From Mobula hypostoma (lineage: Eukaryota), in NCBI RefSeq assembly GCF_963921235.1, contig NC_086097.1:123506001-123570000 (forward strand): DNA of 64,000 bases. The letters are read 5' to 3'. The translations under genes and the position numbers were made by a program. The notes under the pieces are model-generated. The model had not been told where the DNA came from and did not search any database. It saw nothing but the letters and a program-made list of their open reading frames with translations. This document shows, piece by piece, positions 7,800 through 50,741 of the stretch. Positions within the stretch are counted from its first letter, which is position 1. Every line of letters begins with the position of its first letter.

Positions 7800-8031
7800 G
7801 CTTTTCACTTCTTTTCCTCCCCCCCCCACCCACCTACCATACCTTCCCCATCACCTGGCCTCATCAATAACCTCCAGTTTGTACTCCTTCCACTCTCCCC
7901 ACCTTCTTATTCTGGCTTTTCCCCTTTCCTTTCCAGTCCTGATGAATTGTTTCAGCCTGAAAAGTCAACTCTTTATTCTTCTCCATCGATTCTGCCTGAC
8001 CTGCCGAGTTCCTCCACCATTTTGTGTGTGT
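7800..8031 (+). mobile_element. Penelope-like pseudo-LTR fragment with degenerate hammerhead motif
   Basis: cagtcctgatgaa..cctgaaaagtcaact followed by ctgcctgacctgccgagttcctcc, homologous to the pLTR next to the GIY-YIG ORF at 29740-30772. Confidence 0.75.
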
Positions 8032-8399
8032 TATTCTCCAACGATTACTGAAGATGAAGATCACTGTTACTCAGTAGACCACCAGCTTAGTCCTCATCTT
8101 CATGTCTTCATCTTTGGACACCTTTTTTAACAGGTAACTGAAGACATTGACATATTGAACACAATAATGGATTTTGTCATCAGTGACTGCCTTCAGTAAA
8201 AAATGACTATTGGGAAAAAAAAGGTCCATCGTGGATTTTGGCTTTCAGTGGATTGAGTTGTGCAGTAGGGAGAGAATGGTAGAGGACTTCCGTATTCCAC
8301 CTTAGTGTAAAACATATCTCCCTCTGAAATTTCAGTCAGGGAATCAATGGTGGTTTGCAGCACAGTTTCAAAGTCACATTTACAAGCAGCACTGCAACA

Positions 8400-8830
8400 A
8401 AAAAAGCTGCATCTATCATGAAGGACCTCCACCAACCAGTCCACTCTGTATTCTCACTACAACCGTCAGGAAGCAGGTACAGGAGCCATAGGTCCCACAC
8501 CCACCAGGTTCAGGAACAGCTGTTAGCCTGCAACTATCAAGCGCCAAAACCAGCGTAGATAACCTCACTCGCCTTAACTCTGACCTGGTTCCACAACCTA
8601 CAGACTCATCTTCAAGGACTCTACAACTCATGCTTTCAGTATTATTTATTTATGTATTTATTAATTCATTCATTTGTCTTCTTTTGCACATCCGTTGCTT
8701 ATCAACTTTTGTTTATGTATAGTTTTTAATGAATTGTTATATTTTTTTACTTTCCTGTAAATGACTGCAAGAAAATGTATCTCAAGCTAGTATGTGCACT
8801 TTGATAATAAATTTATTTTGACTTGGTCTT
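8400..8830 (+). mobile_element. Rex1/Babar LINE 3' end
   Basis: ORF 8355-8558 KKAASIMKDLHQP.HS.FSLQPSGSRYRS, followed by the typical UTR and tail. Confidence 0.75.
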
Positions 8831-8870
8831 GACTTATCAGTTTGTATATATACAAGGATTATGTGAGAAT

Positions 8871-9440
8871 AGGGGTGGCTGAGTCCTGGGCTGGACGTCC
8901 TGCTCACTTAAGGAAAGTGAAGCATCTTCCATAGCCCCTCCTTTCTTGGTGTAGTGATCACAAGACCACTGTTTGATTTGCCATGCAGGAGATCACTGGC
9001 ATATGGCCTCTCCTACACTACTGTGTCCATAGCAACGCCTTTATGTGGTGCCCTGTTCTTATTGAGTTTCCTATGTCATGGCGCAACCGAGTGTCCAGCG
9101 GTATAACTGTGCAGGCAGGCTGGGGTCATCAACCTTGGTTGGCAGCTAGCCTAGGAGAAGGACAACTTCGATTCCAAACCCGGTGGATGGAACTTGTTAG
9201 CCTTGCCAGGCTGTCTGTCTAGGAGAAGGAAAACTCTGATACTCAACCTACAGCCTTGGTCGTTGTAGCTCACTGTGCCATTGTGGGACGCACCCCTGGC
9301 CTAAAGAGTGGAATTGGTCCATGCTCGCCGATCTTCACTATAAACCTACACAGCCTAGGAAAGGAAGAAAAATCCTACAGCGGTAGAGTCCCCTCCTGAT
9401 CTTCGCAAGCGAAGAACCAGGCATCATCATCATTATCATC
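8871..9440 (+). mobile_element. Non-autonomous RTE-type retroelement with (ATC)n tail and 10-bp TSD
   Basis: TSD atgtgagaat at 8861-8870 and 9441-9450. G-rich 5' end, RTE 5'UTR-like motif taggagaaggaaaactctg (duplicated), 3' (cat)n tail. Confidence 0.7.
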
Positions 9441-9904
9441 ATGTGAGAATTATACTGTAACTGAACAACTGAGGTTGGAGTGACCTTGTGAGAAGAGAAT
9501 AGAGGTGGCTAAAGTTGAACATCTTCTTGATGTTCCTGAAAATTAATTCCATTCTTGCAGGTAGTTTGTTGAGAAATTGAAAAATTGCTGGAAAGAAAGC
9601 TATGAAGAGGGTTGGTGTGACAAGGTAAGATCTCAATTGATATTTTACCAACAGTATCTAGATCTTATTCTTAGTTTTGCTATTTATTAAGTTACCACAT
9701 ATCACCAGTGGCGGCTAACCCAAACAACAGTGACCTTAATGTTCACAGGGATTACAGTGTCTACCCCATATCCGCATCTTGGGTGTCCACAGGAAAAACT
9801 AATTGCTCAATAGCTTTTTTTGTTAATCTTTCTCATGCCTTAAAATGACATTGAGAACCATAATCAGAATTTTTATTTATCTTTGTGATAAATATCTTTA
9901 TAAG

Positions 9905-11015
9905 ACGGCATAAGATGGCGGTGCATGTGAACACAATAGCCTCTCAGGGGCCAACAAAAGGTTCTTTTCTCTTTGCAGTTTTTTTTAATGATCCAAAGAC
10001 AATTCTACTCCAAGAACATTTGGTACTACAGGCCTATTCCAACAGCATGCTGCATGTTGATCAGAGTAGCTAGATTGGTGTCGGTGGTGGAGCTGGCTGA
10101 GAAGTTGAAGGGGTCAGCCGAAGTGTCAAAGGAGCCAGTTAGAATATCGGAGGAGCCCATTGGGATGTCGGAGGAACCAGTTAGGATATTGAAGGAGCCC
10201 ATCGGGATACTGGAGGAGCCCACTGGGATATCGGAGGAGCCCATCGGGATACTGGAGGAGCCCACTGGGATATCGGAGGAGTCCATCAAGATATCAAAGG
10301 AACCAGTTAGGATTTTGGAGGAACTCGTCAGGGTATCGGAAGAGCCAGTTGGGATGGCACAGGAGCCTACCAGCGCGTTGGAGGAGACTGGTTGGGTTCG
10401 GAGGACCTGGACTTGCTGCAGACTGTGTTGCTCCCTGCTTCTCGGAAGCCTCGGAGCTGGTGTAGTATAACCGCGGGAGATTGTCTCGGACATTTCACTT
10501 GCAACCGCAAGACACTGTTAGACAGTGATAATGTATGTTGCCGCAGGCCTGTTACCCTTGTCTGGTGGAGCGGCAGTCAACGTGGGTTGCTGTGTAGCCT
10601 CAGTTGTAGTGAGTACTAGGCCTCACGCCTCGGGCTTGCCTGCTGCTGCAGACCAAGTGAGAGACGCAGAAGCACTACAATGTGGTTGAGCTCAGCTGGG
10701 GCCTGGCCTCACCCATCAGTGCTACCCTTTTGTGTTCGAGCAATGGAATGACAGGCTGGGTTGCATGTGTCTGTACACAGCTGGGAGACTGTACCATCAA
10801 TTGCTGGACATTGCCGCTCAGGATCTTGGACTATATATGGTTTTTTTATGTGGATATGCTTCTTGCTTGATATTTGAACTATGTTACTCGCTATTTTTGA
10901 ATGTTTGCTTGCTACTTTGAATGTTTTGCACCTTGGCTCCACAGGAACACTGTCTCGTTCAGCTGTATCTATGTATGGTTTGAATGATAAGTAAACTTGA
11001 TTTGATTTGACTTTG
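9905..11015 (+). mobile_element. Non-autonomous retroelement with AAGATGGCG head, internal 21-bp array and (TTTGA)n Rex1-like tail
   Basis: taagatggcgg at ~9911, tandem array at 10095-10390, and 3' end gataagtaaacttgatttgatttgactttg. Confidence 0.55.
10095..10390. repeat. 21-bp minisatellite (~13-14 diverged units, consensus ~ggagcccatcgggatatcgga)
   Basis: The period is directly visible and translates as heptads EEPIGIS/EEPVRIL in ORF 9973-10470. Confidence 0.9.
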
Positions 11016-12170
11016 ATCGATTTGAGATATGATGCAAAATGTCGTGTTTTGCAACAGCAGTACAGTGCAAAGACACAAAAATATATAGATTATGGAAATA
11101 AAGAAATGGTGTAAAAAAAATGAACAGGGTAACCACAAGAGATTCTGCAGATGCTGGAAATCCAGAGTAACCCACTCAAGATACTGAAGGATCCCTGCAG
11201 GTCAGACAGCATCTACGGAAAGGAATAAAGAGTCAATGTTTTGGACTGAGACCTGAATGAAGGGTTTCAGACTGAAACACTGACGAATTAACAGGGTGGT
11301 GTTTATCGGGTCATAGACCATTCACAAATCTGATGACAGAGGGGAAGAAGCTGTTTCTGATTCACTAAATGTGGGACTCTGACCTCCTGTATCTCCTCCC
11401 TAATGGTGTAATAATGGGAAGAGGGAATGCCTGGGATGGGGGCATCTCCTCTTGAAGATGTTCTCAATGATGGGAGCCACTGGCATGGCTCCTTCATGAT
11501 TGCAGTAGTGTGTTGGCCTGGGATACATATTCTGTGATGTTGACGCCGCACAACTTAAAGATTCTCATCCGTTGCACTGCTGCTCCTTCGGTGTCAATTG
11601 TGTGTGTTTTCCCAACCTTCCTGCTGAAGTTCACAATTAGTTCATTGCTCTTGCTGTCTTTGAGTGTGAGGTTGTTATTGTGCTACTACTCAACTAGGTG
11701 ATCTCCCTTGTTCCTGCAAGCTTCCAGTGATTCAGCCAACGACAGTGGAGTTACTGGCAACAGTGCAGTTATAGGTGGTGTTTGTGCTGTGCATAGCCAC
11801 ACAATCAAGAGTGTGGAGAGAGTAGAAAACGGGGCTAACACACATCCTTAGATGTGCCTGTGTTATTTGTCAGTGAAGATGAGATTATATTACCTATCTA
11901 CACTGATAGTCGTCTCCCAATAAGAAAGTCTGTTGCAGAGGGAGGTACAGATGCCCATATTTGAAGTCTGGCTAGTAGTACTGAGGTAATGATGGTGTTG
12001 AATGCCGAGCTGAAAATAATACACAGAAGCCTGATGTATATCTTCCAGTTGTCTAAGTACTCCAAAGCAGTGGAGAGTTAGTGTCCACTGTAGAGCTGCT
12101 GCTACAGGAGGTAAATTGCTGCAGGTCCAGATCCTGGCTATAACCAACCTCTTGAAGCACTTCATTACAT
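11016..12170 (-). mobile_element. Rex1/Babar LINE fragment (with pLTR insert 11131-11289)
   Basis: ORF 11890-12165 MKCFKRLV and other Rex1 RT relics; UTR near 11016-11120. Confidence 0.7.
11131..11289 (-). mobile_element. Short Penelope pLTR insertion with inverted hammerhead segment, 8-bp TSD
   Basis: TSD aacagggt at 11123-11130 and 11290-11297. The minus pLTR runs to ~11252, then a plus-oriented tgaagggtttcagactgaaacactgac follows. Confidence 0.7.
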
Positions 12171-12360
12171 TCTCCTACAGTTGTCATTTTGTATGAAGAG
12201 AGTCCATAATGGTTTGCTACACAATATGACCTGAAGGCGATTACATCTTCTTCATAAATTCCTACAGCTTTTTATTTGCAATCAGTGGTTCATTGCAGAG
12301 GAGGTGTCAAAACAAGGACCTTCCCACAATGTATGAGTTAGTAAATAACATGATGCATTA

Positions 12361-13355
12361 TTCAAAGTTCAAAGTAAATTTACTTTTCAAATGCTTATAC
12401 TGTAAGTCACCATATACTACCCTAAGATTCATTTTCTAGCAGGCAATCACAGTAAACACACTAGAATCAATGAAAGACCATACCCAACAGGACAGACAAA
12501 CAACCAATGTGAAAAATAACAGCAGGCTGTTCCAATACAAAAAGAAAAAAAACAAAATAATAATAATAATAAAATAAGCAATAAGTATTGAGAACATGAG
12601 ATGAAGAATCCTTGAAAGTGAATCCAGAGATTGTGGAAACAGTTCAGCAATGGGGCGAGTGCACTTGAGTGAATTTAACCCTCTGGTTCAAGAGTCTGAG
12701 AGGTAATAACTGTTCCTGAACTTGGTGGTGCAGATCCTGAGGCTCCTGTACCTTCTCCTTGATGGTAGCAAGGCAAGAGAATGGCCTGCATGGAAAGCGT
12801 CCTTGATGATGGATGCTGCTTTCGTGTGACACTCAACCAACAGGATCTTGAACAAAAAAGGATAACTACACTCATCTACTGAGATGTTCCCACAACCAAC
12901 GCTCTCACTTTAAGGACTTTATCTTGTTATTTCATGATCTTGTTATTTATTGCTACTTATTTATATTTGCATTTGCACTTTGTTGGCTTCTCTGCTCTTC
13001 TTCATTCATTCATCCTGTTTACAGTTACTGTTCTATAGATTTGCTGAGTATTCCCACAGGAAAAAGAATCTCAGGGTTGTATGTGGTGACATGTACGTAC
13101 TCTGATAATAAATGTTACTTTGAACTTTGAACTATATGCTGATTCTTCACCAGCCAATGACAGTGGTGTCATTGGCAAACTCAGATAGAGTTTTGGGGCT
13201 GTGCTTAACCTCACAGTCATGAGTGTAAAGTGAGTAGAGCAGAGGGTTAAGGACACAGCCTTGTGGCGCATCTGTGCTGATGGAAATCATGGAAGAGATG
13301 TTGTTGACAATTTGAACTGACTGGGGTCTGTAAGTGAGGAAATCGAGGATCCTGT
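12361..13355 (-). mobile_element. Rex1/Babar LINE fragment containing an opposite-strand Rex1 3' UTR (12836-13132)
   Basis: ttcaaagttcaaag tail at 12361 and RT relics (ORF 13071-13271). The inner plus-strand UTR ends ctttgaactttgaac. Confidence 0.7.
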
Positions 13356-15269
13356 TCTAACCTAAGATATGTAAGGAGATTTCCATTTTATCTTTCTTGA
13401 TTAAATCACTAGATAAGGGCAGGAAAAATTAATCAGTTTATAAGCTTTCAGTCCAAACTTAAACAGGCTTGAATCTGATCCAAGTTAATACTCAGAGCTC
13501 TCCCTTTCTCTAAATGACAATGGAAAAACTACTTTCAACTTTATCTTAAGCTTCTTTCCACGTGGTCAATGGAAACTTCAGCACTTCTTCGAGGCCAGAC
13601 AAAAAAAAATGTCTTCTCACCCTGATGACACCAGTCCAATTTATAATCATTTGAAATTTTTCTGGCACCTTGCCCTCGAGCCCCTCAGTAGCCAGCAAAT
13701 GTTTCATTTAAGGCACCAAATTTTTAAGTAGGAGCCCTTTCTTCCAGATGAAAACTAAATTTACTAAAACTGGCATTCCAGAATTTTGAGGCGCATCAAC
13801 TTATGGCTGAGGCAAATTGACACAAATAATCTATAAAATTTTCAAAGTTCTTGTATTAGTGATTTTGCATGTGCATAAATGGTTGACACCAAAAGCAAAA
13901 TCAGATGTTAAATAGAAAAAAGCATATGTCAAATTAAGGCGTGAAGTATAAAAGTATGACTGACAAAAGCACTTCCAACAAAATACCTGTTAATATATAA
14001 TTTACACAACAAAATTCATTTAGCTTTAAGAAAGGGATGTTTCAGAACTCTAGTATGTACAGACTTGGTTGGATAAAAGTATTCTGATCACAAAAATTTG
14101 ACCCGTACAACAGGTTTTCTTATATTCATATAAGCTATTTAAGTTAGTTTCTACTTTTCAAGCAAATATCTAATAATTTAAAGCATTCTCTTTTTTCGCA
14201 GAATAACTAGAAGCACTAGGCTCCAAATAGATTATTGCCAGAAAAAGATAAACTCTTATACGTACTCTGTTAAACTGCTTTATCTTCCTCAGATCCTTCC
14301 AAAAGTTGTGGATAGTAACTTAGCATGCTAGTACATTTTCATAAGTGACTCTTCTTAAACAGCTAAAGAAAGCTGCAATAATTTGTTTCCCACTAGTGAC
14401 CCAGAACCATCATATCTTCATAAAGTCAATATGGAAAGAATGCTATGCAGCTGCGGTTTCAGTTCAAAGAATTTATAAAATAGAACACATATTCTCACAT
14501 TCTGCAAATCCATGAAAAACATCTCACAAGAACTGTTGACGCAGGTTAAGTGGGTCAAACTTTTCTTTCAGGGAAGACAGATCCACACTGCACAAAGGAG
14601 GCTGCATTCTTCAGATAAACCCGTAACTTGAAGAAGCTAAATCTATTTCTGTATCGTTAACAGGAACCACATTAAGTTTCAGAGGTTAGGCAGAGGGCAT
14701 TTTCTATGGTTAATTTCTGTATCATTATTTTAGAAATTTAATAAATAATGCCTGCAATAATAAAAAAAACTGCTAAATAGATATAAAATTAATTTACGCC
14801 TCCTCAATATGGCAGGAAAAGAGAAAGGCTACACAGATGACTTGAAGTAATTCATTACAGATGTCTAATTAGACGGACCACATACAAAAAGCCATTTATT
14901 TAAATAAACAAAGCTATAGACAATTGTAGTATTGAATGGTATTGTAAATCTGAAACCCAGATGCTACATAAGAGAATCTCTGTAATATTTGGGATTTTTT
15001 TTGTTAACACTTTGATTCAAACTTTGACAAACTGGCTGCCTCTTTCTGGATGATACATATAGTGTGACAGGCCAATTGGAAAAGTAATTGTGGACATGCT
15101 ATGTTGCTGCCAGGATGTATGGCAATACTGGTGGGGCAGTCGCCAGCATACTTTCAGGTGATGAATTTCACTGTGTTTTGAAGTACACATGACAAATAAA
15201 CTTGAATCTTAACGCTTAAATTTACAAATTATTTTGCCGTGATATAACAAAATATTCCTCATGGTTACG

Positions 15270-15442
15270 ATAGGGTCTTTTAAGAGAGTTTTGGATAGGT
15301 ACATGGAGCTTAGAAAAATAGAGGGCTAAGGGCTATAGGTAAGCCTAGTAATTTCTAAGGTAGGGACATGTTCGGCACAACTCTGTGGGTCAAAGGGCCT
15401 GTATTGTGCTGTAGGTTTTCTATGTTTCTATGTTTCTATGTT
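15270..15442 (+). mobile_element. CR1 3' end with (TTTCTATG)n tail
   Basis: gggcctgtattgtgctgtagg followed by the 8-mer tail. The reverse complement occurs at 21132-21385. Confidence 0.85.
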
Positions 15443-16129: not shown

Positions 16130-16252
16130 AACCACAAGAGGTTCTGCAATTACTGGAAATCCAGGACACCTCACACAAAATGCTGGAGTAACTCAGCAGG
16201 TCAGACAGCATCTATGGTTAGTAATAAACAGTCGACATTTTGGACTGAAACA
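16130..16252 (-). mobile_element. Short Penelope pLTR fragment ending in the hammerhead motif
   Basis: cacacaaaatgctggagtaactcagcagg..cagtcgacattttggactgaaac. Confidence 0.7.
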
Positions 16253-17569
16253 TTCTCCATTTAGATGATAATCCGCCTTTTGATCCCTCCTACCAGATTG
16301 CATTACCTCACACTTTGTTACATTTGTCAATAGTTTGCACAATCACTCAATCTACCTATTGCAGGGTGATAGCATCTTCATTACAATATGCTCTTCCACC
16401 TAGTCATGTGCCATCGGAACATTTCAGTAGCTTATATTTCACCCCTCCTCCAGGTCAATATCATTAATAACTGAGTGCCATGAATCAATCACTAAGGTAC
16501 TTTAATAATTACACTACAATGCAATGATGCTGAGACACATCATCAGTGAAGTAACCTGGAGTCATCAGGTGCTTCAGGCCATTCAACATCAGACACCCTC
16601 ATCCAGGTGACCAGGCAGGGTTGATCATTTCCCAGCTTATGTCCCAAAAGTGATGGTCCATGGGTCATACCTCTTGATCCATAACCATCTGGAGGCTCGC
16701 TCTGTAACCCCTGTGATGGTCTGGTAACAAGTTATCATTAATAATAATTGCCAAGGACCAATCACTGAGGTGCTTCAATAGATACATCTACTGTATAATG
16801 ACAATAACTATTTCTAGGCATTTCCATTTTAGTACCAATATTACTCAATAGATCAAACACTAAGACAAAAAAGATAAAATTTCATTTTATTAGATAAAAT
16901 GTCATTAGATAAAAGAAGACTGTGATAATAGTATTTTATTTCATGTTTTAACTCAGTTATTCCTCTAGGGAAACTACATGGTGGTGAAATTGATACTGTT
17001 TAAAAGGCAGAAGATAAATTATTGCAAATCAGCAGTCTAACTGCACGCTAACTGGTTTTGAATCTTTTGAAGAGCAGAGTTAAGTTCAGACACTGGCTAT
17101 TGGCTCTGCCAAAAGAGCAGCTGCAGGCACACCCAGAGATGGCAGGATGCCAGCCTGGTGAAGCTGCAACGCAGGATTACAGGATGGGTAAACATGGAGA
17201 ACAGTTTGCTGATCCAGCGATCAACAATTCAGACTGAAGCTCTGTAATCTTATTACACATTCAGTCATGAACAGCTCCAGACTGGCTCACAATGTCAGTT
17301 TTAGTGAATTCTGGGGTGGGGAGGAATGACTGTGTAGGGTAACGTATTTAGGAGAAACGTACATAATTCACAGCCGCCGACATTGAGTTGGGGTTTCACT
17401 TTAAGAGGCTGGGTCTGTTGTGATGACGTTATTACATAAAGATTTTTAGCTTATTTCTGTTTAGGTTTTGAAGTTCAATAAATGTGTTATGGGCTTCATT
17501 AAACATAAAACGCCTTACCTTGCTTTATTTGCGAAAGCATACAGGCCTCTATTTGCTTCAGTCGGCATA

Positions 17570-18183: not shown

Positions 18184-18312
18184 CAAACAAGAGAAGATCT
18201 GCAGATGCAGGAAATCCAAGCAGCACATGCAAAATGCTGGAGGAACTCAGCAGGCCAGGCAGCATCTATGGAAAGGGGTACAGTCGACATTTCGGGCCCA
18301 GGCCCTTCCTTA
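18184..18312 (-). mobile_element. Short Penelope pLTR fragment ending in the hammerhead motif
   Basis: caaacaagagaagatctgcagatgc..cagtcgacatttcgggcccaggcccttc. Confidence 0.75.
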
Positions 18313-19322: not shown

Positions 19323-19630
19323 GAAATGCACACAGAACACTGGAGGAACTCAGCAGGTCAGGCGGCATCTCTGAAAATGAATAAACAGCCGAAGTTTCGG
19401 GCCAAGACCCTCCTTCAGGACTGAGAAGGAGGGTTGGAAGATGCCAGAATCTAAAGATGGGAGAAGTGGAAGGAGGCTAGGTGAAGCCATATGGGTGGTA
19501 AAGGGCTGGAGAAGAAAGAATCTGAAAGGAGAGGAGGGTGGACCAGAGGAGACAGGGCGGGAGGAAGGGACCCAGGGGGAATAATAGGCAGGTGAGTCGA
19601 GGTAAAAGGTCAGCATGGGGAATAGAGGAA
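19323..19630 (-). mobile_element. Penelope pLTR fragment
   Basis: Homologous to 29740-30130; hammerhead relic at ~19385-19423. Confidence 0.7.
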
Positions 19631-20159
19631 GGGGGTGTTTTTAAAAGATATTTGGACACATAGATGGAGAGGAAATGTTTAGAAGGAAATGTGCAAAAAG
19701 TAGGCACATGGAGGAGCATTTTGGTAGGCATGGATGAGCTGGGCAGTATGGCCTGTTTCCATAATTATTCTATGAATACATGACCATACACAAAGCAAGT
19801 TGAGTTAATATGGCAGATGAATATATGATAAAATAGCAGCAAACGTTTGTTAAAACTGCTGCAATCTATGCAAGCCTTCTGTGAAAATTGCTGGTGAATT
19901 ATATTTACACCGATCAATTCAAGCTCCCTGTTCACCACGCAGAAAGGATATGAACACACTGAAGGTGAATCAGGGGAGATTCACCAGGATGCTGCCTAGA
20001 AAAGTGTGTTTGTTTTGAGGGGAGTAGGGCGAGCTGGAGACCTGATAGAGGTGAGCAAAATTATGAAAGCCAAGGACAGGATGGTGGAAAACTTTTGCCA
20101 GTAACAGTGATGTTTATAACGAGACGGCAAGGATTTATGGTGATCAATAAAAACAGGTG

Positions 20160-22535: not shown

Positions 22536-22539
22536 TGTA

Positions 22540-26861: not shown

Positions 26862-27004
26862 CTCACACAAAACGCTAGAGGTGCTCCGGTCTCAGCCCAA
26901 AACATCGACTGTTTACTCTTTTCCATAGATGCTGCCTGGCCTGCTGAGTTCCTCCAGCATTTTGTGTGCAGTGCTTGAATTTCCAGCATCGGCAGATTTT
27001 CTCA
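26862..27004 (+). mobile_element. Short Penelope pLTR fragment with small 5' inversion
   Basis: A ~20-bp inverted piece cacacaaaacgctagagg, then the plus pLTR starting inside the hammerhead (ggtctcagcccaaaacatcgactg). Confidence 0.7.
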
Positions 27005-29739: not shown

Positions 29740-30772
29740 CAACCAACACACATCAAAGTTGCTGGTGAACGCAGCAGGCCAAGCAGCATCTGTAGGAAGA
29801 GGTGCAGTCGACGTTTCAGGCCGAGACCCTTCGTCAGGACTAACTGAAGGAAGAGTGAGTAAGGGATTTGAAAGTTGGAGGGGGAGGGGGAGATCCAAAA
29901 TGATAGGAGAAGACAGGAGGGGGAGGGATAGAGCCAAGAGCTGGACAGGTGATAGGCAAAAGGGGATACGAGAGGATCATGGGACAGGAGGTCCGGGAAG
30001 AAAGACAAGGGGAGGGGACCCAGAGGATGGGCAAGAGGTATATTCAGAGGGACAGAGGGAGAAAAAGGAGAGTGAGAGAAAGAATGTGTGCATAAAAATA
30101 AATAACAGATGGGGTACAAGGGGGAGGTGGGGCCTTAGCGGAAGTTAGAGAAGTCGATGTTTATGCCATCAGGTTGGAGGCTACCCAGACGGAATATAAG
30201 GTGTTGTTCCTCCAACCTGAGTGTGGCTTCATCTTTACAGTAGAGGAGGCTGTGGATAGACATGTCAGAATGGGAATGGGATGTGGAATTAAAATGTGTG
30301 GCCACTGGGAGATCCTGCTTTCTCTGGCGGACAGAGCGTAGATGTTCAGTAAAGCGGTCTCCCAGTCTGCGTCGGGTCTCGCCAATATATAAAAGGCCAC
30401 ATCGGGAGCACCGGACGCAGTATATCACCCCAGTCGACTCACAGGTGAAGTGTTGCCTCACCTGGAAGGACTGTTTGGGGCCCTGAATGGTGGTAAGGGA
30501 GGAAGTGTAAGGGCATGTGTAGCACTTGTTCTGCTTACACGGATAAGTGCCAGGAGGAAGATCCGTGGGGAGGGATGGGGGGGACGAATGGACAAGGAAG
30601 TTGTGTAGGGAGCGATCCCTGCGGAATGCAGAGAGAGGGGTGGAGGGAAAGATGTGCTTAGTGGTGGGATCCTGTTGGAGGTGGCGGAAGTTACGGAGAA
30701 TAATATGTTGGACCCGGAGGCTGGTGGGGTGGTAGGTGAGGACCAGGGGAACCCTATTCCTAGTGGGGTGGG
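29740..30772 (-). mobile_element. Penelope-like element (Neptune-type), 5'-truncated: GIY-YIG end plus pLTR, 14-bp TSD
   Basis: TSD atcacaacttccct at 29726-29739 and 30773-30786. Stop-free frame 30770-30135 reads VPLVLTYHP..CKQNKCYTC..VIYCVRCSRCGLLYIGETRRRLGDRFTEH..EQHLIFRLGSLQPDGIN. Confidence 0.95.
29806..29841 (-). ncRNA. Minimal type-I hammerhead ribozyme motif
   Basis: Minus strand agtc-CTGACGA-agg(gtctcgg)cct-GAAAC-GTC-gact. Confidence 0.8.
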
Positions 30773-31248
30773 ATCACAACTTCCCTGTTTTGTTGGACCC
30801 AAATCACACCGACCCTAGACGTATATTGATTATGAAAGGTGGCCTTGTCACCACTGAGTCACGTGGCTATTAGCATGGCCAGTTAATGAGCCAACTTTCT
30901 ATATGAGACTGGTGAGTGGGCTTCGTGTATTTATAAAGGGGGTATTAGGATAAGGTACACAAATAGAGTTGGTAGATTATTGGCCGTTATCCAGTTGAAG
31001 AGCAGAGTAGATTTATAGGGCCACATGGTGTGTACTTGCTTGTTTTTTTTTATGACTTTAGGTCCTTTTGTAATTATACTGATTGACTTGATGGATTCCC
31101 TGTGGAGAAGAGCTGGTCTTTCATGAGGAGGTGTTGGGGTCCCCGGGCTGCGAGATGGAGAATCAGAATGAGGCTTGGTCTTGAGTCAGTTTTGTGGGGA
31201 AGAATCACCAGACCCAATGTCCGATCCCAGGTTACAGGGAGGGAGGTG

Positions 31249-31385
31249 AGTCCTGATGAAGGGACTCAGCTCAAAACGGCGACTATTTAGTCCCGCCCAT
31301 AGATGCTGCCTAACCTGCTGTGTTCCTTCACCATTCTGTGTGTGTCACTCCAGATTTTCAGTATCTGCAGAATCTCTTGAGTTTA
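31249..31385 (+). mobile_element. Short Penelope pLTR fragment starting at the hammerhead
   Basis: agtcctgatgaagggactcagctcaaaacggcgact..gatgctgcctaacctgctg. Confidence 0.75.
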
Positions 31386-33539: not shown

Positions 33540-33661
33540 CACAAACAAGAGAAAATCTGCAGATGCTGGAAATCCAAGCAACACACACAAAATGCTGGAG
33601 GAACTCAGCAGGCCAGGCAGCATTTACGGAAAAGAGGAGATGTTTCGGGACGAGACCCTTC
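33540..33661 (-). mobile_element. Short Penelope pLTR fragment ending in the hammerhead motif
   Basis: cacaaacaagagaaaatctgcagatgctgg..gtttcgggacgagacccttc. Confidence 0.75.
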
Positions 33662-34310: not shown

Positions 34311-34324
34311 TAAACATTTTACTC

Positions 34325-34730
34325 ATTTATTTATTTTGTTTTGAGATACAGCACAGTAACAGGCCCTTTCAGCACAATGAGTCTGAGCCACCCAGCTACA
34401 TCCGTGTGACCGATTATGCCTTTGGTCACCTCTACATCTTCGGAATGTGGGAGAGGACCTGAGCACGCGGAAGAAGCCCACACGGTCATGAGGAGCAATG
34501 CACAAATTCCTTACAGACAGAGGCCGGAAATGAACGCAGGTCGCTATCGCTGTAATAGCGTTATGCTAACCACTACGATACCCTGCTGTCAGCATGCCAC
34601 CGTGATGCTGAGGTACTTAGTATTCTTAGCAAGACGCACAAAGTGCTGGAGGAACTCAGCAGGCCAGGCAGCATCTATGGAAAAGTGTAAACAGCCAACA
34701 TTTCGGGGTGAAACCCTTCATCAGGACTGA
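34325..34730 (-). mobile_element. V-SINE (34325-34600) and short Penelope pLTR (34632-34730)
   Basis: Reverse SINE tail and V-domain. The pLTR ends at cccttcatcaggactg, the 5' edge of the hammerhead. Confidence 0.65.
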
Positions 34731-36256: not shown

Positions 36257-36439
36257 CACAACGCGCTGGAGGAACTCAGCAGGTCGGGCAGCATCCGTGG
36301 AAATGATCAGTCAACGTTTTGGGCCGGAACCCTTCGTCCTGACTGATCGTTTCCAAGGATGCTGCCCGACCTGCTGAGTTCCTCCAGCGTGTTGTGAGTG
36401 TTGCTTTGACCCCAGCATCTGCAGAGTATTTTGCATTTA
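36257..36439. mobile_element. Fold-back mini-Penelope pLTR, 14-bp TSD
   Basis: ~57-bp inverted arms at 36257-36313 and 36340-36396. TSD ctatgaaatgtata (36243-36256) / ctatgaagtgtata (36440-36453). Confidence 0.85.
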
Positions 36440-37348
36440 CTATGAAGTGTATATATGCTATACACCTGATTGAAGCAGGCTTTACATTCTAGTACTTTCT
36501 AAGTTGCTCTAGACTTGAGGGATCCTCTCAATATCCATCAAGTTATGTTGGGCAGCAGATTAAGATATAACACTTTGCACATATGCATTCTTCTGAGGCA
36601 GTCCCCAGGGATCCCACTATCTCTGTCGATTCTGAAGTGACTAATAACCATCATCTGTAGTGAAGGAACAGGCTGACTGGTTGCTGAGTGGGTACAATGG
36701 ATTGCTGTATACGTCGCTGAGCCTCCTCATGCTCCCAAGGAGAATCCTTCTGTTCGTTCTAATGTGGAGTCTTTGTACATCAGTTACCACATGGACTTGA
36801 CAAGGCAAAGCCTTGCTGCAGTCACAAAGGGGTCCAAAGCAACTGATGGCCAGAGTCTGCTGAGTGAGTTTAACACACACAAAGATACATGGACATTCAC
36901 AAATATCATGCCTGTCTATACTAATCCCACTTACCTTCATTAATTCCTTATCCTTGGCATGGATGAGTTTCTGTCTGAGTGTGTTTGTAGGTTTGAAAAA
37001 CACAGGGATCTGGCGTTTGTTGAAAATCCTTCCGAGTTTCTCTGAAACTCCAGCTACATGTGGGATGACTATACTCATCCCCAAGGATCCTCCACCCCAA
37101 ACATAAACAGAACAAAATTGTACATGCTATCCAATGCAATCAGAACTGCACAGATCTGTATATTGGTGAGACAAAACAGCCACTTCACAAACAGGTGGCC
37201 CAACATAGGAGGGCTAACACTTCTGGTCAAGTAAACACAAAATAAACTGCAAACAACAGGAATTCTGCAGATGCTGGAAATTCAAGCAACACACATCAAA
37301 GTTGCTGGTGAACGCAGCAGGCCAGGCAGCATCTCTAGGAAGGGGTGC

Positions 37349-37384
37349 AGTCGACGTTTCAGGCCGAGACCCTTCGTCAGGACT
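37349..37384 (-). ncRNA. Minimal type-I hammerhead ribozyme motif
   Basis: Identical to 29806-29841. Confidence 0.8.
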
Positions 37385-38118
37385 AACTGAAGGAAGAGTA
37401 AGTAAGGGATTTGAAAGTTGGAGGGGGAGGGGGAGATCCAAAATGATAGGAGAAGACAGGAGGGGGAGGGATGGAGCCAAGAGCTGGACAGGTGATAGGC
37501 AAAAGGGATATGAGAGGATCATGGGACAGGAGGTCCGGGAAGAAAGACAAGTGGGGGGGGGGAACCCAAAGGATGGGCAAGGGGTATATTCAGAGGGACA
37601 GAGGGAGAAAAAGGAGAGTGAGAGAAAGAATGTGTGTATAAAAATAAATAACAGATGGGGTACGAGGGAGAGGTGGGGCATTAGCGGAAGTTAGGGAAGT
37701 CGATGTTCATGCCATCAGGTTGGAGGCTACCCAGACGGAATATAAGATGTTGTTCCTCCAACCTGATGGCATGGGTAGCCTCCAACCTGATGGCATGAAC
37801 ATCGACTTCTCTAACTTCCGCTAATGCCCCACCTCCCCCTTGTACCCCATCTGTTATTTATTTTTATACACACATTCTTTCTCTCACTCTCCTTTTTCTC
37901 CCTCTGTCCCTCTGAATATACCCCCTGCCCATCCTCTGGTTCCCCGCCCCCCTTGTCTTTCTTCCCGGACCTCCTGTCCCGTGATCCTCTCGTATCCCTT
38001 TTGCCAATCACCTGTCCAGCTCTTGGCTCCATCCCTCCCCCTCCTGTCTTCTCCTATCATTTTGGATCTCCCCCTCCCCCTCCCACTTTCAAATCTCTTA
38101 CTAACTCTTCCTTCAGTT

Positions 38119-38154
38119 AGTCCTGACGAAGGGTCTCGGCCTGAAACGTCGACT
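38119..38154 (+). ncRNA. Minimal type-I hammerhead ribozyme motif
   Basis: Stem I agtc/gact, core CTGACGA 38123-38129, stem II agg/cct, GAAAC, then GTC with predicted cleavage after C38150. Confidence 0.8.
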
Positions 38155-38710
38155 GTACCTCTTCCTAGAGATGCTGCCTGGCCTGCTGTGTTCACCAGCA
38201 ACTTTGATGTGTGTTGACAAAATAATCTGCAGATGCTGGGGTCAAAGCAACACTCACAACACGCTGGAGGAACTCAGCAGGTCGGGCAGCATCCGTGGAA
38301 AAGATCGGTTGACGGTTCGGGCCAGAACCCTTCGTCGGGACCTCTGGTCAAGTCTCGGCTGTATATCTACACCTAAACAAGGAACACTTCACTGGTGATA
38401 ACGATGTGCACATTTTGGACAGGGAGGACAGGTGGTTTGAAAGAGAGGTTAAAGAAACCATCTTTGTCAAACTGGAAAACCCATCCCTGAACAGAGGGGA
38501 TGGGTACAACACCACCTATCAGTTACTTACAATGCAGTCCTAACATCTCCACCTTAGCGTCCGCTGCAACAGTTCACACCTCCATTCATGCAAAGACAAG
38601 ACTAATGACTCTCTCATTGCCTCTATGACTGTTAATAACTCTTATGTGATTGCTATACCTTTAAACAACTCACAGAGTTTACAAGCTGGAAAACTACCCA
38701 CCATGGGTCA

Positions 38711-38750: not shown

Positions 38751-40479
38751 CAGACAACACAGCAAGTCCAGTTGCCTTGATTTACTACAGCTTGATATAC
38801 AATGACCTGGATGACTGAGAACCTTCATAGATATGTTCTTGCTTCCAATAAGTCCTCTGTAAAGATAGATAGGATTACATTAACTAGGAGTCATGGCCAG
38901 CATTAGACTGAAGGACCCATCTCTGCGCTGTCCTATTGTATGCTCAAATATCAACTGTTCTTTGTGCTAAAAGTTTACGCCTCCAATCCCCTGCAAGTCC
39001 AAAGTTCAAAACACATTTACTACCAAAGTGTGTAAACATTATACAACCTCGAGATTTGTCTCTTTACAGGCAGCCACAAGACAAAGAAACCCAAAAGAAC
39101 GTATTAAAAAAAGAAAACTGTCAAATACCTAATGTGCAGAGAGGGAAAAAAAACAAATTCTGCAAACAATAAACGTAAGCAACTAGCATCTAGAGCATAA
39201 GTGAGTCCACAGACACAAAGCCCAGCGCAGGCAGAGCAGGCCACAACCTCAGCCTCAGTTCAGTGCAGGGCAGAGTAAATATGGCAGAGCATGGAGTAGA
39301 AAAATCCTCTATCTCACTTTATGGTCATGCCCTGGAGTTCTAGTCAGCCCTACCATGGGAAACAGACTTTGAATGCCTTCCCAATCTGCACCTCATTAAT
39401 GTATATATCTCTATTATGTCACTTCTCAGACTAGTTTGCTTTGGAGGCAGTCCCAGACTATCCAGTGTGGCCTTACAGTATAACTCAGCTCCTCTAATTT
39501 AGGCACGATCTGCATCCTCTCTAGTTTGACAACATCTGCCCTGAAACATGGTGCACAGAATGATACACAATACTGCAAGCGTAGCCTGACTAGAGGTTAT
39601 AAACACAAGAGACTCTGCACATGCTGGAAATCCAGAGTAACACGCACAAAATGCTGGAGGAACTCAGCAGTTCAATCGGCATCTCAATTTTCACATTCTT
39701 CGCACAATTATACTCTCCTGGTTCACCAAAACAAAGGGAGTAGAATTTCCACAGGCTTTTTATTACAACTCCAGTGCAAATTCAAAAATAAACAATGTAG
39801 ACATTTCTCGTGTATTTCTGCCATGCACTGCATAAATATCCAGAAGACCCCACCCTTACCACATGGAGATTAGTAATTAGAAAGTGATGCTGTGGCTCTA
39901 GCGCCAAACCATGTAAATTACATGTCAAGACTCAAATGCACTCTGAAGCAAACACCATGAGCATAAGTCTCCTTCACTTTGGATCTGGTTTGGGCCCAGA
40001 TGGCACCTGCACTATAACAGCTTCACATTAGAAGTAAGGGTATTAAAAAATGTACCCTATTTATTATTTTTGGCAGTGCCACTTCTTTCCCTCTAGATTA
40101 AGACAATTCTGATTTGGACAGTGCAGGCAGTCTCCCTCATCAGATTATAATACATGTTCTCCTACCATAAGCTCAAAAACAGAAATGGGTTTTGGATGTA
40201 CAAAACACAATTGGCTCAAGGAAAAAAAAGCGACAATGCCCAATATTAGAAACCTATAGTACTGAGCAAAGCTCTTTTGATCCTTTACTCATGAGTAGTT
40301 TAAAATTGTAATCATAAAACACATAAGAAAGCTTTGTTAAACCAGTTAAAGGTTAAAGAATTTTATAGCTAATATTTAAACTATGCGTGTGCTGGTGTTT
40401 ATATTAAGTATGGCTCCATTTAATGATCTGAAGAGATGCTGCAGAACTAACACATGCACTGTAAAAGACCATTTGCTGG

Positions 40480-43177: not shown

Positions 43178-43179
43178 CT

Positions 43180-43645: not shown

Positions 43646-43969
43646 GGTCAGCTTGGTCCATTATAAGCATCAAGCCCTGCCCGAGAAATTCATTATCCAT
43701 GGACTTTTAAAATGCATCCTTCCCCCATCCCCATGCCCTCAATGATTTACAGGTGTCAATAGGTCTGAATATTGCATTGATCAAGTACTTCAAAACTTCG
43801 AAATATTGAAAGAATTGAGAATTGAAACATACATTAGAAAATACATGTAATAATTGTGAAGAAGGGTTTAAGTCCGAAACATCAACTGCTTACTCTTTTC
43901 CATAAATGCTGCCTGACCTGCTGAGTTCCTCCAGCATCTTGTGTGTGATAACTTGTAATATGTTAAATC

Positions 43970-45085: not shown

Positions 45086-45364
45086 AGTTAAATTTATTTA
45101 GTGAATTAAGTCAAAGAAAATGTATTACTTAAACTTACCTCTTTCTTCCTTTCTCTCTTGCAGCTGTTCCTTTCTACTGAAATGAATGATGGTCTAATCT
45201 GGAAAGTTCTATGGATAGATTCTCCAGTTTAACTGCTGATCAGCTGAAGAAAACTGACAGATTCCATCATCAGAAATGCGAACAGCAGGAACCTCTCAGG
45301 AAGTTCAGGACATCCATATTTATAAACACATTTGCCAAAGTTCATAACTTCCTTACAGTTCATC

Positions 45365-45710
45365 AAGGACATCTTCAAAAGGCGGCATTCATCATTAAAG
45401 ACCCCAACACTCAGGGCATAACCTCTTCTCTTTACTACAATCTGGGAGAAGGTACAGGAGCCTGAAGATACACACTCAGTGGTTTAGAAACATAGGCTTC
45501 CCCTCCGCCATCAGATTTCTGAACACTCCATAAACCCGTGAAAACTATCTCACTATTTTTCACTACTTATTTAATTTGATTTGTTTACATATGTACTTTA
45601 TTTTTTATTATAATTTATTGTATTTTATGTATGGTACTGTGCTGCTGCTGTAAACACACACATTTCAGGACATACATCAGTGATAATAAACCTGATTATG
45701 ATTCTGTTGT
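45365..45710 (+). mobile_element. Rex1/Babar 3' end
   Basis: KAAFIIKDP relic; tail cctgattatgattctg. Confidence 0.7.
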
Positions 45711-46329
45711 ATGAGGTAATGCCAGCATTTCTCAATGACAAATCTAAGCCTACAACTCACAGTGTAAGATTTTAATCTTTTCAGCAAACTATTTACTTAT
45801 CAGGTACTTAATTATGTAACATTACTCAGTCAGTTAACACAAATTACAAGTATTTAACGATAATTAAAGTTTACAATCTATATTGATTGCAAAGATATCA
45901 AACAAACAGCTTGTTACTTGTTGATATCTTTTTAATTGTACTTTCAGTTTCCGCTGATAACTGCTGGGAACTGTAGAGAAACCTACATTATTTAGTTCTC
46001 AGCAACTTGGTTTTAAAGTCATAACCCTGTTGTACAATCCTGGGGCTGCATAAATAAGCACTGGAAGTAAATTATTACCCGATAGAACGTTTGAGAGCTG
46101 CTGTACAATTTGGAGTCTTGCAAATTACCATCCATCATTTCATATAAAATAGACTTCTCCCAAATTGAAACAAAATTGAGGAAAAATGATTTGAAACTAT
46201 TGAAAAGTGAAGTTGTTCAAAACGTGCAGAAACCTTTACAATGAATACTTGACTGAACTATGGGAAGTAAATGTTACACTGTTTTGTAATGGAAACACTG
46301 GAACACAGTCTATTGTACCAATACCACTA

Positions 46330-46410
46330 TACACACTGTGGCCACTTTATTAGGTACAACAGCTTGTTTTTGCAACTATCTGATCAGTCACTCAAGCGGC
46401 AGCAAAACAA
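46330..46410 (+). mobile_element. Tc1 left-end fragment
   Basis: tacacactgtggccactttattaggtaca, same TIR family as 1032-1451. Confidence 0.6.
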
Positions 46411-47842
46411 TGCACCTGGCTGTGTGCCTCAGAAGGGAATGGGAGAAATGATGCAAATTATAGTGATAGGGGATTCATTGGTTAGGGGAACAGACAGGAG
46501 GTTCTGCAGGCGAAAATGAGATTCCAGAATAGTATGTTACCTCTTGGGTGCCAGGGTCAAGGACACCTTGAATCAAACCCACAGCATTTTTAAGTGGGAG
46601 GGTGAGCAGCTAGAGGTTATGGTCCATGTTAGTACCAATAACATGGCTAGGAAGGGTAACAAGGTCCTGCAAGGTGAGTTTCGGGAGTTAAGTACTAAGT
46701 TTAAGATCAGGGTTGTGATCTCAGGATTGTTACCCGTGCACATGCTAGAGAGGTCAAAAATAGGAAGGTTATACAGCTTAGAACATGGCTGAGAAGATAG
46801 TGCAGGAGGGAGGGCTCTCTTCCAGAGAAAGTGGACCTGTACAGATGGGATGGTTTGCACCTGAACTGGAAAGGTTTGCTAGTGCTGCTCGGGAGGGGGT
46901 GATGGTGTTTAAACTGGAGTTGTAGGGGGATGGGGAATATAGCACCAGAGTAGATACCGGAGTTGTTATAGGGAAAGGTGTTGTGAAGCCTACGAACAAA
47001 GTCAGGAATCGAAAAGTTGAACATGGTGGGACTAATGTTCTGAGTTGCGTATATTTCAACGCAAGAAGTATTGAAGGAAAGGTGGATGAGTTTAGGTGGA
47101 ATTATGACATTGTAGCCATTAGTGAGACTTGGTTGCAGGAGAGGCAGGACTGGCTGCTTAATGTTCCAGGGCTCTATTGTTTTATATGTGATAGACCAAG
47201 AGAGATTAAAGAGGGAGGGGTGGCATGACTAGTCAGGTAAAATGTCCCGTAGATTCTCAAACAGGACAGACTAGCAAGTTCATCTCATTAAAGGGATTAT
47301 ATTATAGACCATCTACAGGATGTAGAGGAGCAAGTTTGTAGAGAGATTGTAGACTGTTTACAAGAAACATAAAGTTGTGATAATAAGTGATTTTGAACTT
47401 CCTACATATTGACTGGAACTCCTATACTATAAAATAGCCTGATGGGATAGAGTTTGTTAAATGTATTGAAGGAAGTTTTCTTAATCAGTACATAGAGTTC
47501 CCAACAAGAGAGAGTGTGATGCTAGATACCCTATTAGGGAATGAGACAGGGCAGGTGACAGAAATTTGTTTAGGAGAACACTTTGCAGCTAGTGATCATA
47601 ATGCCATTGGTTTCACGATAATCTTGGAAAAGGATAGGTCTGGTCCTCAGATTGAGGTTCTAAATAGGAAAAAGGCCAATTATGATGTTGTCAGAAAGGA
47701 TCTGGCAAGTATGGATTGGGATAGGCTGTCTTCTAGCAAAGGTGTACTTGGTAAGTGGGAGGACTTCAAAAATGAAATTTTGAGAGTAAAGAGTTTGTGT
47801 GTTTCTGTCAGAATAAAAGGCAAGAATAAGAAGTTTAGAGAA

Positions 47843-48429
47843 CACTATTCCCTCTAATTTTCTTACAGCTGTGTGGACAAACCATTGTTCTGAGCAGGAA
47901 ATTTGTACATGGCCTGAAAAACTGTGTAACACTTTAAATGCTTTTTTTTGTAATATGCACATCAAACAAACACTAACCACAACTCACAACATAAGTAAAC
48001 AATGTCAGACAGTCAAAACAAATGAAAGGCAAAAGTAAGATGTCTTGACTAGACAGTATCGGCACTCAGGGGCCGACGGTTTATTAATGATGAACTACTG
48101 ACTTCCCTTCTGTGTTTATTGTTGCAATTTGTAACAGTGTTGTAACTTGAAATACTAACAATGTACTATAAATATGTTGAAACTCTAAAATATCTCAGGT
48201 ACATTTATTACTCAGAAAATATATGGATTATATTCATGAAACATAATTAATGACAGGGTATTTCATAATTATATTTACATAAATGTTTAAATTATATTAG
48301 CATCACTTGAAAATTATATTGACATCATAAAAAAAGAAAATTCGGGCTGCATAGCAACAAAGGCTACGTGTGCAGGAACATTTCAGTTACTGCATGGCCT
48401 TTCACCCGTGAAGATTAGGTGGAAAAGTG
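47843..48429. mobile_element. hAT-type non-autonomous DNA transposon (MITE)
   Basis: Imperfect 16-bp TIRs cactattccctctaat / attaggtggaaaagtg. 8-bp TSD ttagagaa (47835-47842) / tgagagaa (48430-48437). AT-rich non-coding interior; CR1 resumes after it. Confidence 0.75.
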
Positions 48430-49014
48430 TGAGAGAACCTTGGTTTTCAAGAGATTCTGAGGCCCTTGTTAAGAAAAAGAAGGAAGTGTTTTGCAGGTGT
48501 GGGCAGCAAGGAGCTAACAAGGTACTTGAGAAGTATAAAAAATGCAAGAGAACACTTAAATAGGAGAGCTAAAAGAAGGCACAAGGTTGCTCTAGCAGAC
48601 AAGATGAAGTAGAATTCCAAAGGGCTTCTACAGATATATTAAGAGCAAAAGGATAGCAGGGGACAACATTTATCCCCTTGAAGATCAGTGTGGTAATCTA
48701 TGCATGGAACCAGAAGAGAACGGGGAGATCTTAATTGGATATTTTGCATCTGTATTTACACAGGAGATGGACGGACACACAGTCTATAGAAGTGAGGCAA
48801 AGCAGCAGTGGGGTCATACAGATTGCAGAGGAGGAAGTGTTTTCCGTCAGAAGGAAAATTAGGCTGGATAAATCCCCAGAGCCTGACAAGACATTCCCTC
48901 GGAACTTGTGGGACTGTAGTACAGAAGTTGCAGGGACCCTAGCAGAGACATTTAAAACATACTTAGCAACTGTGAGGTGCCAGAGGATTGGAGGATAGCT
49001 AATGTTGGTCCATT

Positions 49015-49325
49015 GTTCAAAGTTCAAAGTAAAATTTATTATCAGAGTACATACATGTCACCACATAAACCCCTGAAATTCTTTCTCTGTGGGTATACTT
49101 AGCAAATCTATAGAATAGTAACTGTAAACAGGATCTGTAAACTGTAAACATCAGGAACTCTAAACTGTAAACAAACTGTACAAATGCAAATAATAAATAA
49201 ATAGGAATAAATAATGAGCATAAAATAAGAAGATAAAAGAGTCTTAAGATGAGTGTAGTTATGCCTTTTGTTCAAGAGCCTGATGGTTGAGGTGTAGTAA
49301 TTGTTCCTGAATCTGGTGGTGTGAC
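49015..49325 (-). mobile_element. Rex1/Babar 3' UTR insertion in CR1
   Basis: gttcaaagttcaaag tail; flanks attgttcaa / attgtttaa. Confidence 0.75.
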
Positions 49326-50653
49326 AATTGTTTAAGAAAGGCTCTAAGAATAACACAGGAAATTGTAGGCAGATGAGCCTGACATCAGTAGTTGGAAAGT
49401 TTTGGAAGGTATTCGAAGGAATCAGATATATAAGTATTGGATACACAGGGGCTGATTGGGGATAGACAGCATGGCTTTATGCATGTTAGGATGTGCCGAA
49501 CCAATCATATAGAGTTTTTCAAGGAAGTTACCAGGAAAGTTGATGAAGGCAAGGCAGAGGCTGTTGTCTGTATGGACTTTAGCAAGGCCTTTGACAAATT
49601 CCCATACGGGAGGTTGGTCAAGAAGGTTCAGTCATTTGGCATTCAAGATGAGGTAGTAAGTTGGATTAAACATTGTCCTGGCAGTAAATGGTTGCCTCTC
49701 TGACTGGAGGCCTGTGATGTGTGGTGTGCCGCAGATGTACACGCTGGGCCATTGGTGTTTGTCATCTATGTCAGTGATCTGAGTGATTATATGGTAAACT
49801 GGATCAGCAAATGTGTGGATGACACCAAGTTTGTAGGTATAGTGGACAGGGGGAAAACTACTAAAGCTTGCAGTGGGATCTAGACCAGCTGGTGAAATGG
49901 GCTGAAAAATGGCAGATGGAATTTAATGCAGACAAGTGTGAAGTGTTGCATTTTGGGAGGACAGTGAGTGGTAGGGCATTTGAAGAAAGCAGTAGAATAG
50001 TGGGATCTGGGAATACAGATCCACAATTCCTTGAAAGTGGCATCACAGGTGGATAGGATTGTAAAGAAAGCTTTTGGCACATTGGCCTTCATAAATCAAA
50101 GTATTGAGTACAGGAATTGGGATGTTATGGCTACGGGACTGCTGCAAGTCCATGTTCAAGTACTCAACAGAGGGTCTGAACTAATACAACACAGTTGTCG
50201 TGGACTTTATAAAGTCAGTCATGGACGGAGTGTGTCCCGACAAAATCATTTACTGTCTTCCAGAACCAAAATCCCCAGACAAATCAATAGATCTGTGATA
50301 TGCTAAGGGCCGGATCAGTGGCATTCAGGTCTGGTGCCCAAGCAAAGTACAGGAGATCCAGGAGCAATCTCTGCAATGCCATCTCACAGGCAATAGACCA
50401 ATTCTGGACCAAACTGGATTGACAGCTGTGGCAGAATTTAAAAAGTAAAACTAGCAACCTACAAGGTTTTACTCACAGATGAGCTTAACGCCTCTTAGGC
50501 TCACTTTGACCAACAAAACATGGAAGTACTTTCACAAACTCCCATGGTCCCTGACAACCCTGTGACATCTGTCTCTGAGGCTGATGTGAGTGCATCTTTC
50601 AGGGTGGTGAAAGCACAGAAAGCATCTGGCCGAATCCTGAAGACCTGTGCTGA

Positions 50654-50741
50654 TGAAGGGTCTCGGCCTGAAACGTCAACTGCACCGCTTCCTAGAGATG
50701 CTGCTTGGCCTGCTGCGTTCACCAGCAACTTTTATGTGTGT
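50654..50741 (+). mobile_element. 88-bp Penelope pLTR insertion starting at the hammerhead core, 12-bp TSD
   Basis: TSD gacctgtgctga at 50642-50653 and 50742-50753. The target ctga completes CTGATGA. Confidence 0.85.

Follow-up and report, generated by a model that had tools for sequence, protein, structure and literature searches.

Why should many short pieces of one mobile element begin at almost the same internal position? The question is raised by a repeat-rich 64,000-nucleotide stretch of the Mobula hypostoma genome (contig NC_086097.1, positions 123,506,001 to 123,570,000; hereafter the window), in which fragments of the pseudo-long terminal repeat (pLTR) of a Penelope-like element (PLE) recur, most of them with their 5' boundary at a small hammerhead ribozyme motif. 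A sequence-only reading of this DNA had proposed them as an undescribed system, akin to short interspersed elements (SINEs) or retrozymes. Our results show that they are real short copies of an ordinary Neptune-type PLE. A separate SINE- or ribozyme-circle family is not supported as a class of its own, and the common start probably corresponds to the 5'-terminal nucleotides of the RNA.

In the numbering used here, +1 is the C in the CUGA core of the hammerhead, which places the 5' strand of stem I at -5..-1 and the predicted cut after +28. A profile scan with nhmmer, seeded with copies from the window, returned 22 rows; removal of two weak rows (E 2.4 and 3.3) and joining of three inverted arms to their partners gave 17 units, comprising 12 short and five long copies (two of the long arms being one event). 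All 11 short copies listed in the sequence-only reading were present where it had placed them. The 5'-most base, read by eye to +/-2 nt, lay at -5..+10 in 11 of the 17 hammerhead-plus-tail units, in agreement with the boundary claimed earlier, in or at the edge of the hammerhead. Only one unit began further in (~+48) and none between -6 and about -140, the long copies starting at about -140, -250, -350, -385 and -935.

The short copies are 85-183 bp long. Those on the minus strand are 11131 (11131..11289), which starts at -1 and consists of an inverted arm of about -1..+31 followed by sense +11..+135; 16130 (16130..16256, start ~+8); 18184 (18188..18309, ~+6); 33540 (33540..33661, +6); 34632 (34630..34729, -5, with an intact hammerhead core); 38232 (38219..38342, -4); and 39600 (39600..39684, ~+48), which has no hammerhead and was absent from the earlier list. 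On the plus strand are 26862 (26862..27004), which starts at +10 after a 25-bp inverted tail piece, 31249 (31249..31385, -4), 43858 (43856..43953, +2) and 50654 (50650..50741, +1/+5, given a 4-nt overlap with its target-site duplication, TSD). The remaining unit, 36257 (36257..36439), is a head-to-head pair, in which an inverted arm running from the tail to about -5 is joined to a sense arm from ~+29. The 60 nt upstream of the short copies are not pLTR sequence, having a pyrimidine fraction of 0.33-0.57 versus 0.78-0.85 in the five long copies. The clustering was significant (P<=5e-4) under a bound that covers any monotone length decay, with the proviso that pieces below ~45 bp could escape the scan, and a conditional test of 11 starts in -5..+10 against one in +11..+60 gave P~1e-6.

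TSDs above chance (null P<=0.008) flank six of the 11: 11131 (8 bp exact, or 12 with one mismatch, in another repeat), 38232 (11 bp, 37222-37232 / 38343-38353), 50654 (12 bp, within the reverse transcriptase (RT) frame of a long interspersed element, LINE), 36257 (14 bp, one mismatch), 34632 (13 bp, one mismatch) and 43858 (10 bp, one mismatch). The TSD of 50654 is further supported by the reading frame of the host LINE, which is restored across the empty site. The earlier claims of duplications of 8, 11, 12 and 14 bp and of independent insertion are thereby upheld for these copies. Two more carry weak duplications (33540, 7 bp, P 0.02; 16130, 6 bp, P 0.05, not significant), and none was found for 18184, 26862 or 31249.

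The parent element was identified from the longest copy (29742..30780, minus strand; 12-bp TSD), which reaches about -935 and joins the 3' end of a PLE open reading frame (ORF) to the pLTR, with hammerhead +1 at 29837. The ORF (30135-30773, minus strand) encodes a GIY-YIG domain, and its product shares 92% identity with a protein of Mobula hypostoma and 73-81% with Hypanus sabinus proteins. These ray homologs (73-92% identical) extend N-terminally and more distant homologs carry PF00078, although the window copy itself has no RT. The window ORF has the CX2-5CxxC linker that separates RT from endonuclease (EN), which does not vary in alignment A1, and the linker of Nematis resembles this linker of Neptune type. 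To judge by the Cys linker and domain order, the parent fits an EN+ PLE of Neptune type. A minimal type I hammerhead (core, stem II and stem I) is predicted in the long copies and in 34632, the reference example lying at 37348..37384 (minus strand), with +1 at 37380 and the predicted cut after +28 at 37353; an Rfam scan of the window returned no hammerhead match, and the matches it did return were dismissed as chance hairpins. Window copies end 3' at two sites, near +95 and +130-135, as expected of an optional 30-40-bp tail, and inverted 5' arms, a PLE trait, occur at 11131, 26862, 36257 and 37253-38216, the first three being short copies. Neptune EN+ PLEs (PMC4209133; PMC8557442) are described with the same features: related RT and C-terminal GIY-YIG domains, the Cys linker, a minimal type I pLTR hammerhead, many single hammerheads from truncated copies, inverted 5' arms and an optional tail. 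They differ in that the accounts given there are of variable 5' truncation, with no pile-up at one site in the parts relevant here.

In a genome-wide check in rays, four contig runs aligned to window positions 37245-37784 at 88% (188,075 contigs for run X1) gave loose ends with unrelated flanks at +130/+132 in 181 and 184 contigs of X1 and 193 and 196 of X5, and at +96 in 189 contigs of X5 (all among the best 24 of 1954 rows). These ends, found in DNA of two organisms, confirm the two 3' end sites, the PLE tail signature.

Do the short copies nevertheless form a lineage of their own? They are 56-97% alike and are spread over several groups and subfamilies in the window, and 50654 nests within the long young subfamily (100/100 support; 92-95% identity to the long arms). 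Of the two patterns that the sequence-only reading had said would count against it, a smooth decay of truncation length was not seen, whereas interleaving of short with long copies was. No lineage independent of the autonomous partner was apparent, in what are small samples with weak branch support. The hammerhead core is intact, by pattern, in only two of the 12 short copies. No tRNA and no poly(A) was found in the short copies, and the A and B boxes, scored by consensus patterns, were absent from all 12, so that an RNA-derived head with an internal RNA polymerase III (pol III) promoter is lacking; of the SINE traits considered, only TSD-flanked retro-insertion was found, in the six copies with strong TSDs. 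Nor are the units bounded by cleavage sites, their 5' ends lying at -5..+10 and their 3' ends at the tail sites, and no tandem units of the short copy, head-to-tail with a complete hammerhead each, occur in the window. The definition of a retrozyme requires tandem units and a circular RNA, and the short copies therefore fall outside that class. A sub-lineage of short copies may exist. We also noted a 35-nt head-to-tail duplication of the hammerhead (joint 37384->37350) in a few contigs (three in X1, two in X5 and one in X11), which from its sequence could fold as an active dimer.

The pile-up recurs in a distant family. A protein search gave 79 metagenome loci with distant relatives of the element, and one of their pLTR families, an invertebrate one, recurs in a 12-Mb record labelled as a bacterial metagenome-assembled genome (G001). 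This record contains a large amount of PLE-rich, seemingly animal DNA, with ~80 copies of an animal-type PLE tail, and for that reason looks largely eukaryotic. Sampling with a tail motif at +66..+90, which is independent of the 5' end, yielded 80 matches, of which 73 were examined; the other seven share a variant of a piece carried within another repeat and were assumed to be that piece. At L116-L120 and L142 a PLE tail piece (+33..+93) sits inside another multi-copy repeat. After six duplicate rows were collapsed, 67 arms in 54 events remained. By 5' end, 20 events lay beyond -51, none at -50..-21, three at -20..-11, 19 at -10..+11, two at +12..+27, six at +28..+33 and four at +34..+65. The main peak at -10..+11 holds 28 of the 67 arms and 19 of the 54 events, with 12 events at +12..+65 (conditional P 1e-4). 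The minor peak at +28..+33 is also enriched (P 1e-3); four of its arms begin at a +33 palindrome and three at +28/+29 (L099 on contig C383, L114 and L121). L099 starts exactly at the predicted cut and has a 13-bp TSD, and is possibly a record of cleavage in vivo.

In G001, too, short and long copies are mixed: the label changes 14 times on a tree versus 14.9 times when shuffled, and identical sequences occur in both groups. The tree, for which one tail match (the first) was taken on each strand of a locus, has weak support and shows mixing rather than branching order. Upstream, a TATAWA motif starts at -39..-37 in 32 of the 42 arms that retain upstream pLTR, ~31 nt before the commonest end (-8/-7); this end was scored as -7, and six of the eight arms concerned carry the common allele's G at -8. 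The spacing from TATA box to start is typically ~30 nt. Three other invertebrate tail queries had no match in G001, the ray tail patterns had none in metagenome, viral and prokaryote collections, and neither the protein search nor the invertebrate tail pattern matched viral contigs. Among inverted arms adjoining ORF-selected metagenome loci, two of 12 end at -3/-4. At L002 a candidate type III hammerhead at 60-200 was rejected, the sequence being a near-perfect 130-bp head-to-head palindrome of another hammerhead family; its sense arm runs from -3 and it adjoins a truncated PLE ORF.

The observations to be explained are an outer 5' edge at a fixed position, a pair of 3' ends, the TSDs, the mixture of short and long copies, and recurrence of the pattern in a distantly related family whose TATA box is suitably placed. 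On balance we consider it probable that the short copies arose as run-off ('strong-stop'-like) products of reverse transcription of an ordinary Neptune-type PLE RNA leader, the outer edge marking the RNA 5' end. Transcription would start within the pLTR, a few bases before the hammerhead; a start site and promoter within the pLTR have been described in Penelope and Chlamys-3. The PLE protein would then nick AT-rich DNA, and RT would start internally at one of the two tail sites, about +95 or +130-150. Such internal starts have been demonstrated in vitro for the Poseidon element of Anolis carolinensis (PAc; PMC11167929), where the tail was traced to two internal RT start sites, both strands were cut and extended and uncleaved RNA was the main substrate. 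The 3' ends in the window match these two sites. When the tail of the leader is used, RT would leave the RNA 5' end after 90-150 nt. The sharp outer edge would then be the start site, with a few nucleotides of inward scatter from trimming or microhomology, and priming from both nicked strands would produce head-to-head pairs. The template might be full-length mRNA in cis, or pLTR-driven transcripts of truncated copies in trans. A minority of copies, those starting at +29, may derive from ribozyme-cut RNA. Lacking the upstream promoter region, the short copies are probably dead ends.

Of the two causes put forward in the sequence-only reading, a discrete mobilised small RNA survives in part: the most likely cause is an RNA with a discrete 5' end, but the separate class built on it is not supported, the short copies forming no clade. 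Arrest of RT at the ribozyme fits poorly, because an enzyme travelling 3'->5' would reach the structure at +33..+18, whereas the observed ends are at the opposite edge. Self-cleavage as the main source was likewise set aside, since it would give ends at +29, and the one such match in the window is the sense arm of 36257. Splicing to an acceptor immediately upstream of the hammerhead was rejected as the cause on the grounds that the -4/-5 copies retain the AG and share no common 5' exon. A cap-derived extra G at the joins would be indistinguishable from a templated one.

Several points weigh against the run-off explanation. The runs examined consist of contigs, and the position of the RNA start is deduced from genomic copies. 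The ray pLTR has no clear TATA box, just a short AT-rich patch near -36..-29, and the start reported for Penelope of D. virilis lies ~121 nt upstream of helix I (46-nt exon plus 75-nt intron). The top loose end on the hammerhead 5' side in both DNA runs was -4 (297 and 262 contigs, among the matches listed), but this peak is confounded, because the consensus there partly reads as upstream pLTR of another subfamily. Depth on the young subfamily in X1 fell about two-fold past the hammerhead, from 10.8M to 5.3M, and rebounded to 8.5M; contig depth is not copy number, but these values argue against a large depth cliff in this subfamily. In G001, the strictest monotone bound was missed at the event level (P 0.15), most short arms have no TSD, and head-to-head pairs supply seven of the eight ends at -7 and four of the five at -10. 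Positions -10..-7 form a 4-bp palindrome, which could select head-to-head joins. Unpaired short arms in G001 peak instead at -3, a position that coincides with the stem I edge and lies 36 nt away from the TATA motif. Finally, the 79 metagenome loci included no full-length element whose 5' end could be read.

The main rival is selection of joins by stem I complementarity, according to which the nascent cDNA forms a fold-back, anneals to another cDNA or is released once both stem I strands have been copied, so that joins would arise at the 5' edge of stem I regardless of where the RNA starts. The peak does sit at the stem I edge in both families despite their differing stem lengths (-5/-4 in the ray; -3 in six of the 67 invertebrate arms), the head-to-head joins fall on short palindromes, and the join in 36257, whose sense arm begins near the predicted cut site, exploits stem I complementarity. 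An opposite-strand joint seen in run X16 (37341/37383) is similar. However, stem I is just 3-5 bp long and folding was no better than that of shuffled sequences in most copies (five of six not significant), many ends join host DNA directly and have a TSD, and neither the TATA spacing nor the empty zone at -21..-50 is explained. We regard this rival as unlikely. Random 5' truncation with a steep length decay, the peak then reflecting small numbers and detection limits, would suit the heavy 5' truncation typical of PLEs, the modest genome-wide step in the ray and the event-level bound in G001. Yet in both data sets the classes of shorter copies that could be detected are less frequent than the peak, the upstream edge is sharp and the pattern recurs in two distant families, and we give this possibility very little credence.

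Recombination between the terminal repeats of full-length insertions would leave solo pLTRs with the same sharp 5' end and a TSD, and the solo pLTRs of Adineta have been ascribed to recombination or deletion. But many full-length insertions would be required, where the window has none and PLEs are mostly 5'-truncated; the short head-to-head pairs, both arms of which stop near the edge, would be left unexplained, and the Adineta solos, as described, have no TSDs. This origin is most improbable. A separate, self-propagating SINE- or retrozyme-like small RNA mobilised in trans by the PLE protein is, in our judgement, likewise very improbable. In its favour are the discrete size and the TSDs, the fact that 11 of the 12 short copies in the window lie outside the one subfamily with ORF sequence there, the subfamily of 36257 and 38232, which in the window consists of short copies only, the 35-nt hammerhead repeat (three contigs in X1, two in X5) and the existence of non-autonomous PLE derivatives such as MRC1 and the pLTR-related retrozymes. 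Against it stand the lack of a single clade, of tandem arrays and of any tRNA, A/B box or poly(A), described above, together with units that are not delimited by cut sites at their ends and a core that is rarely intact.

SINEs mobilised by LINEs are short, TSD-flanked and share the 3' recognition region of their partner, whereas the short copies have no pol III head and no independent lineage, and their sequence is wholly the partner's own. The element itself is already known. A 2014 study (PMC4209133) described single minimal hammerheads and attributed them to truncated PLEs, and pLTR-derived retrozymes followed in 2026 (bioRxiv 10.64898/2026.07.22.740005). Non-LTR retrozymes (PMC7229834; bioRxiv 10.64898/2026.07.22.740005) resemble the short copies in being small, non-coding and pLTR-related, with a type I hammerhead and some dispersed monomers, but they are reported as tandem repeats with a complete hammerhead per unit and a circular RNA, whereas the short copies are dispersed, often have an incomplete core and terminate where RT starts. 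The non-autonomous PLEs of Chlamys, MRC1 among them (PMC8557442), are likewise non-coding, PLE-mobilised units that resemble the autonomous 3' end, but are described as families of their own, with pLTRs and head-to-tail arrays. A further parallel is PAc (PMC11167929), with its two internal RT starts bounding the tail, priming on both strands and uncleaved RNA template. It belongs to another clade, however, its ORF begins inside the hammerhead, and the main text is silent on genomic 5' ends; no RNA reads at the cut site are reported there, whereas here a minor class begins at that site.

A search of titles and abstracts found no report of a 5'-end pile-up in PLEs; most subscription papers and Repbase lay outside that search, and supplements may bear on the point. 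We regard the non-random 5' end as a modest, testable refinement of known PLE behaviour, which bears on how PLEs are copied, where Neptune RNA starts and whether the minimal hammerhead cuts in vivo. If the run-off explanation is correct, DNA alone would suffice to locate the start site of any PLE family, through the 5' ends of its genomic copies, internal RT initiation would act on the leader in vivo, the thousands of lone hammerheads in fish and invertebrate genomes would be explained, and +29 starts would be a countable class for in vivo cleavage. For annotation, it would place such repeats under the parent PLE and not among new SINEs. A bolder and rather unlikely extension is that Neptune PLEs routinely shed leader-only retrocopies of 90-150 nt, that in rays some of these keep an internal promoter and self-amplify as PLE-dependent SINE analogues transcribed by RNA polymerase II, and that the +29 class is a fossil record of hammerhead cleavage in vivo.

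The remaining PLE copies in the window are long. Those that the sequence-only reading had noted as extending further do so: one at 7797..8033 (plus strand) spans about -140..+95, belongs to an older subfamily and has a 13-bp TSD with one mismatch, and another at 19323..19650 (minus strand) spans about -250..+95, its 5' edge being approximate. An inverted twin insertion at 37253..38216 consists of two long arms of the young subfamily (about -385 and -350), has a 15-bp TSD with one mismatch and is nested in short copy 38232, within its tail, the end of which lies near 37233-37252. The region 36641-38560 is in fact a three-level nest, with a TSD at both inner levels, in which the twin lies within 38232 and 38232 within an older PLE-like remnant. 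This remnant has the nuclease-end sequence of a different PLE, which we take to be Poseidon-like, and had no Pfam match.

Finally, we noted some features of less direct relevance. Around +48 all copies have a pyrimidine tract followed by AG and ATG, resembling a splice acceptor, and the hammerhead-less copy at 39600-39684 begins there. L038 and L050 are terminally redundant contigs with open frames of 1049 and 1139 amino acids, and look like complete unit-length PLE monomers. Elsewhere in the window, positions 10130-10355 hold a 21-bp tandem array of 10 copies with open frames on both strands.

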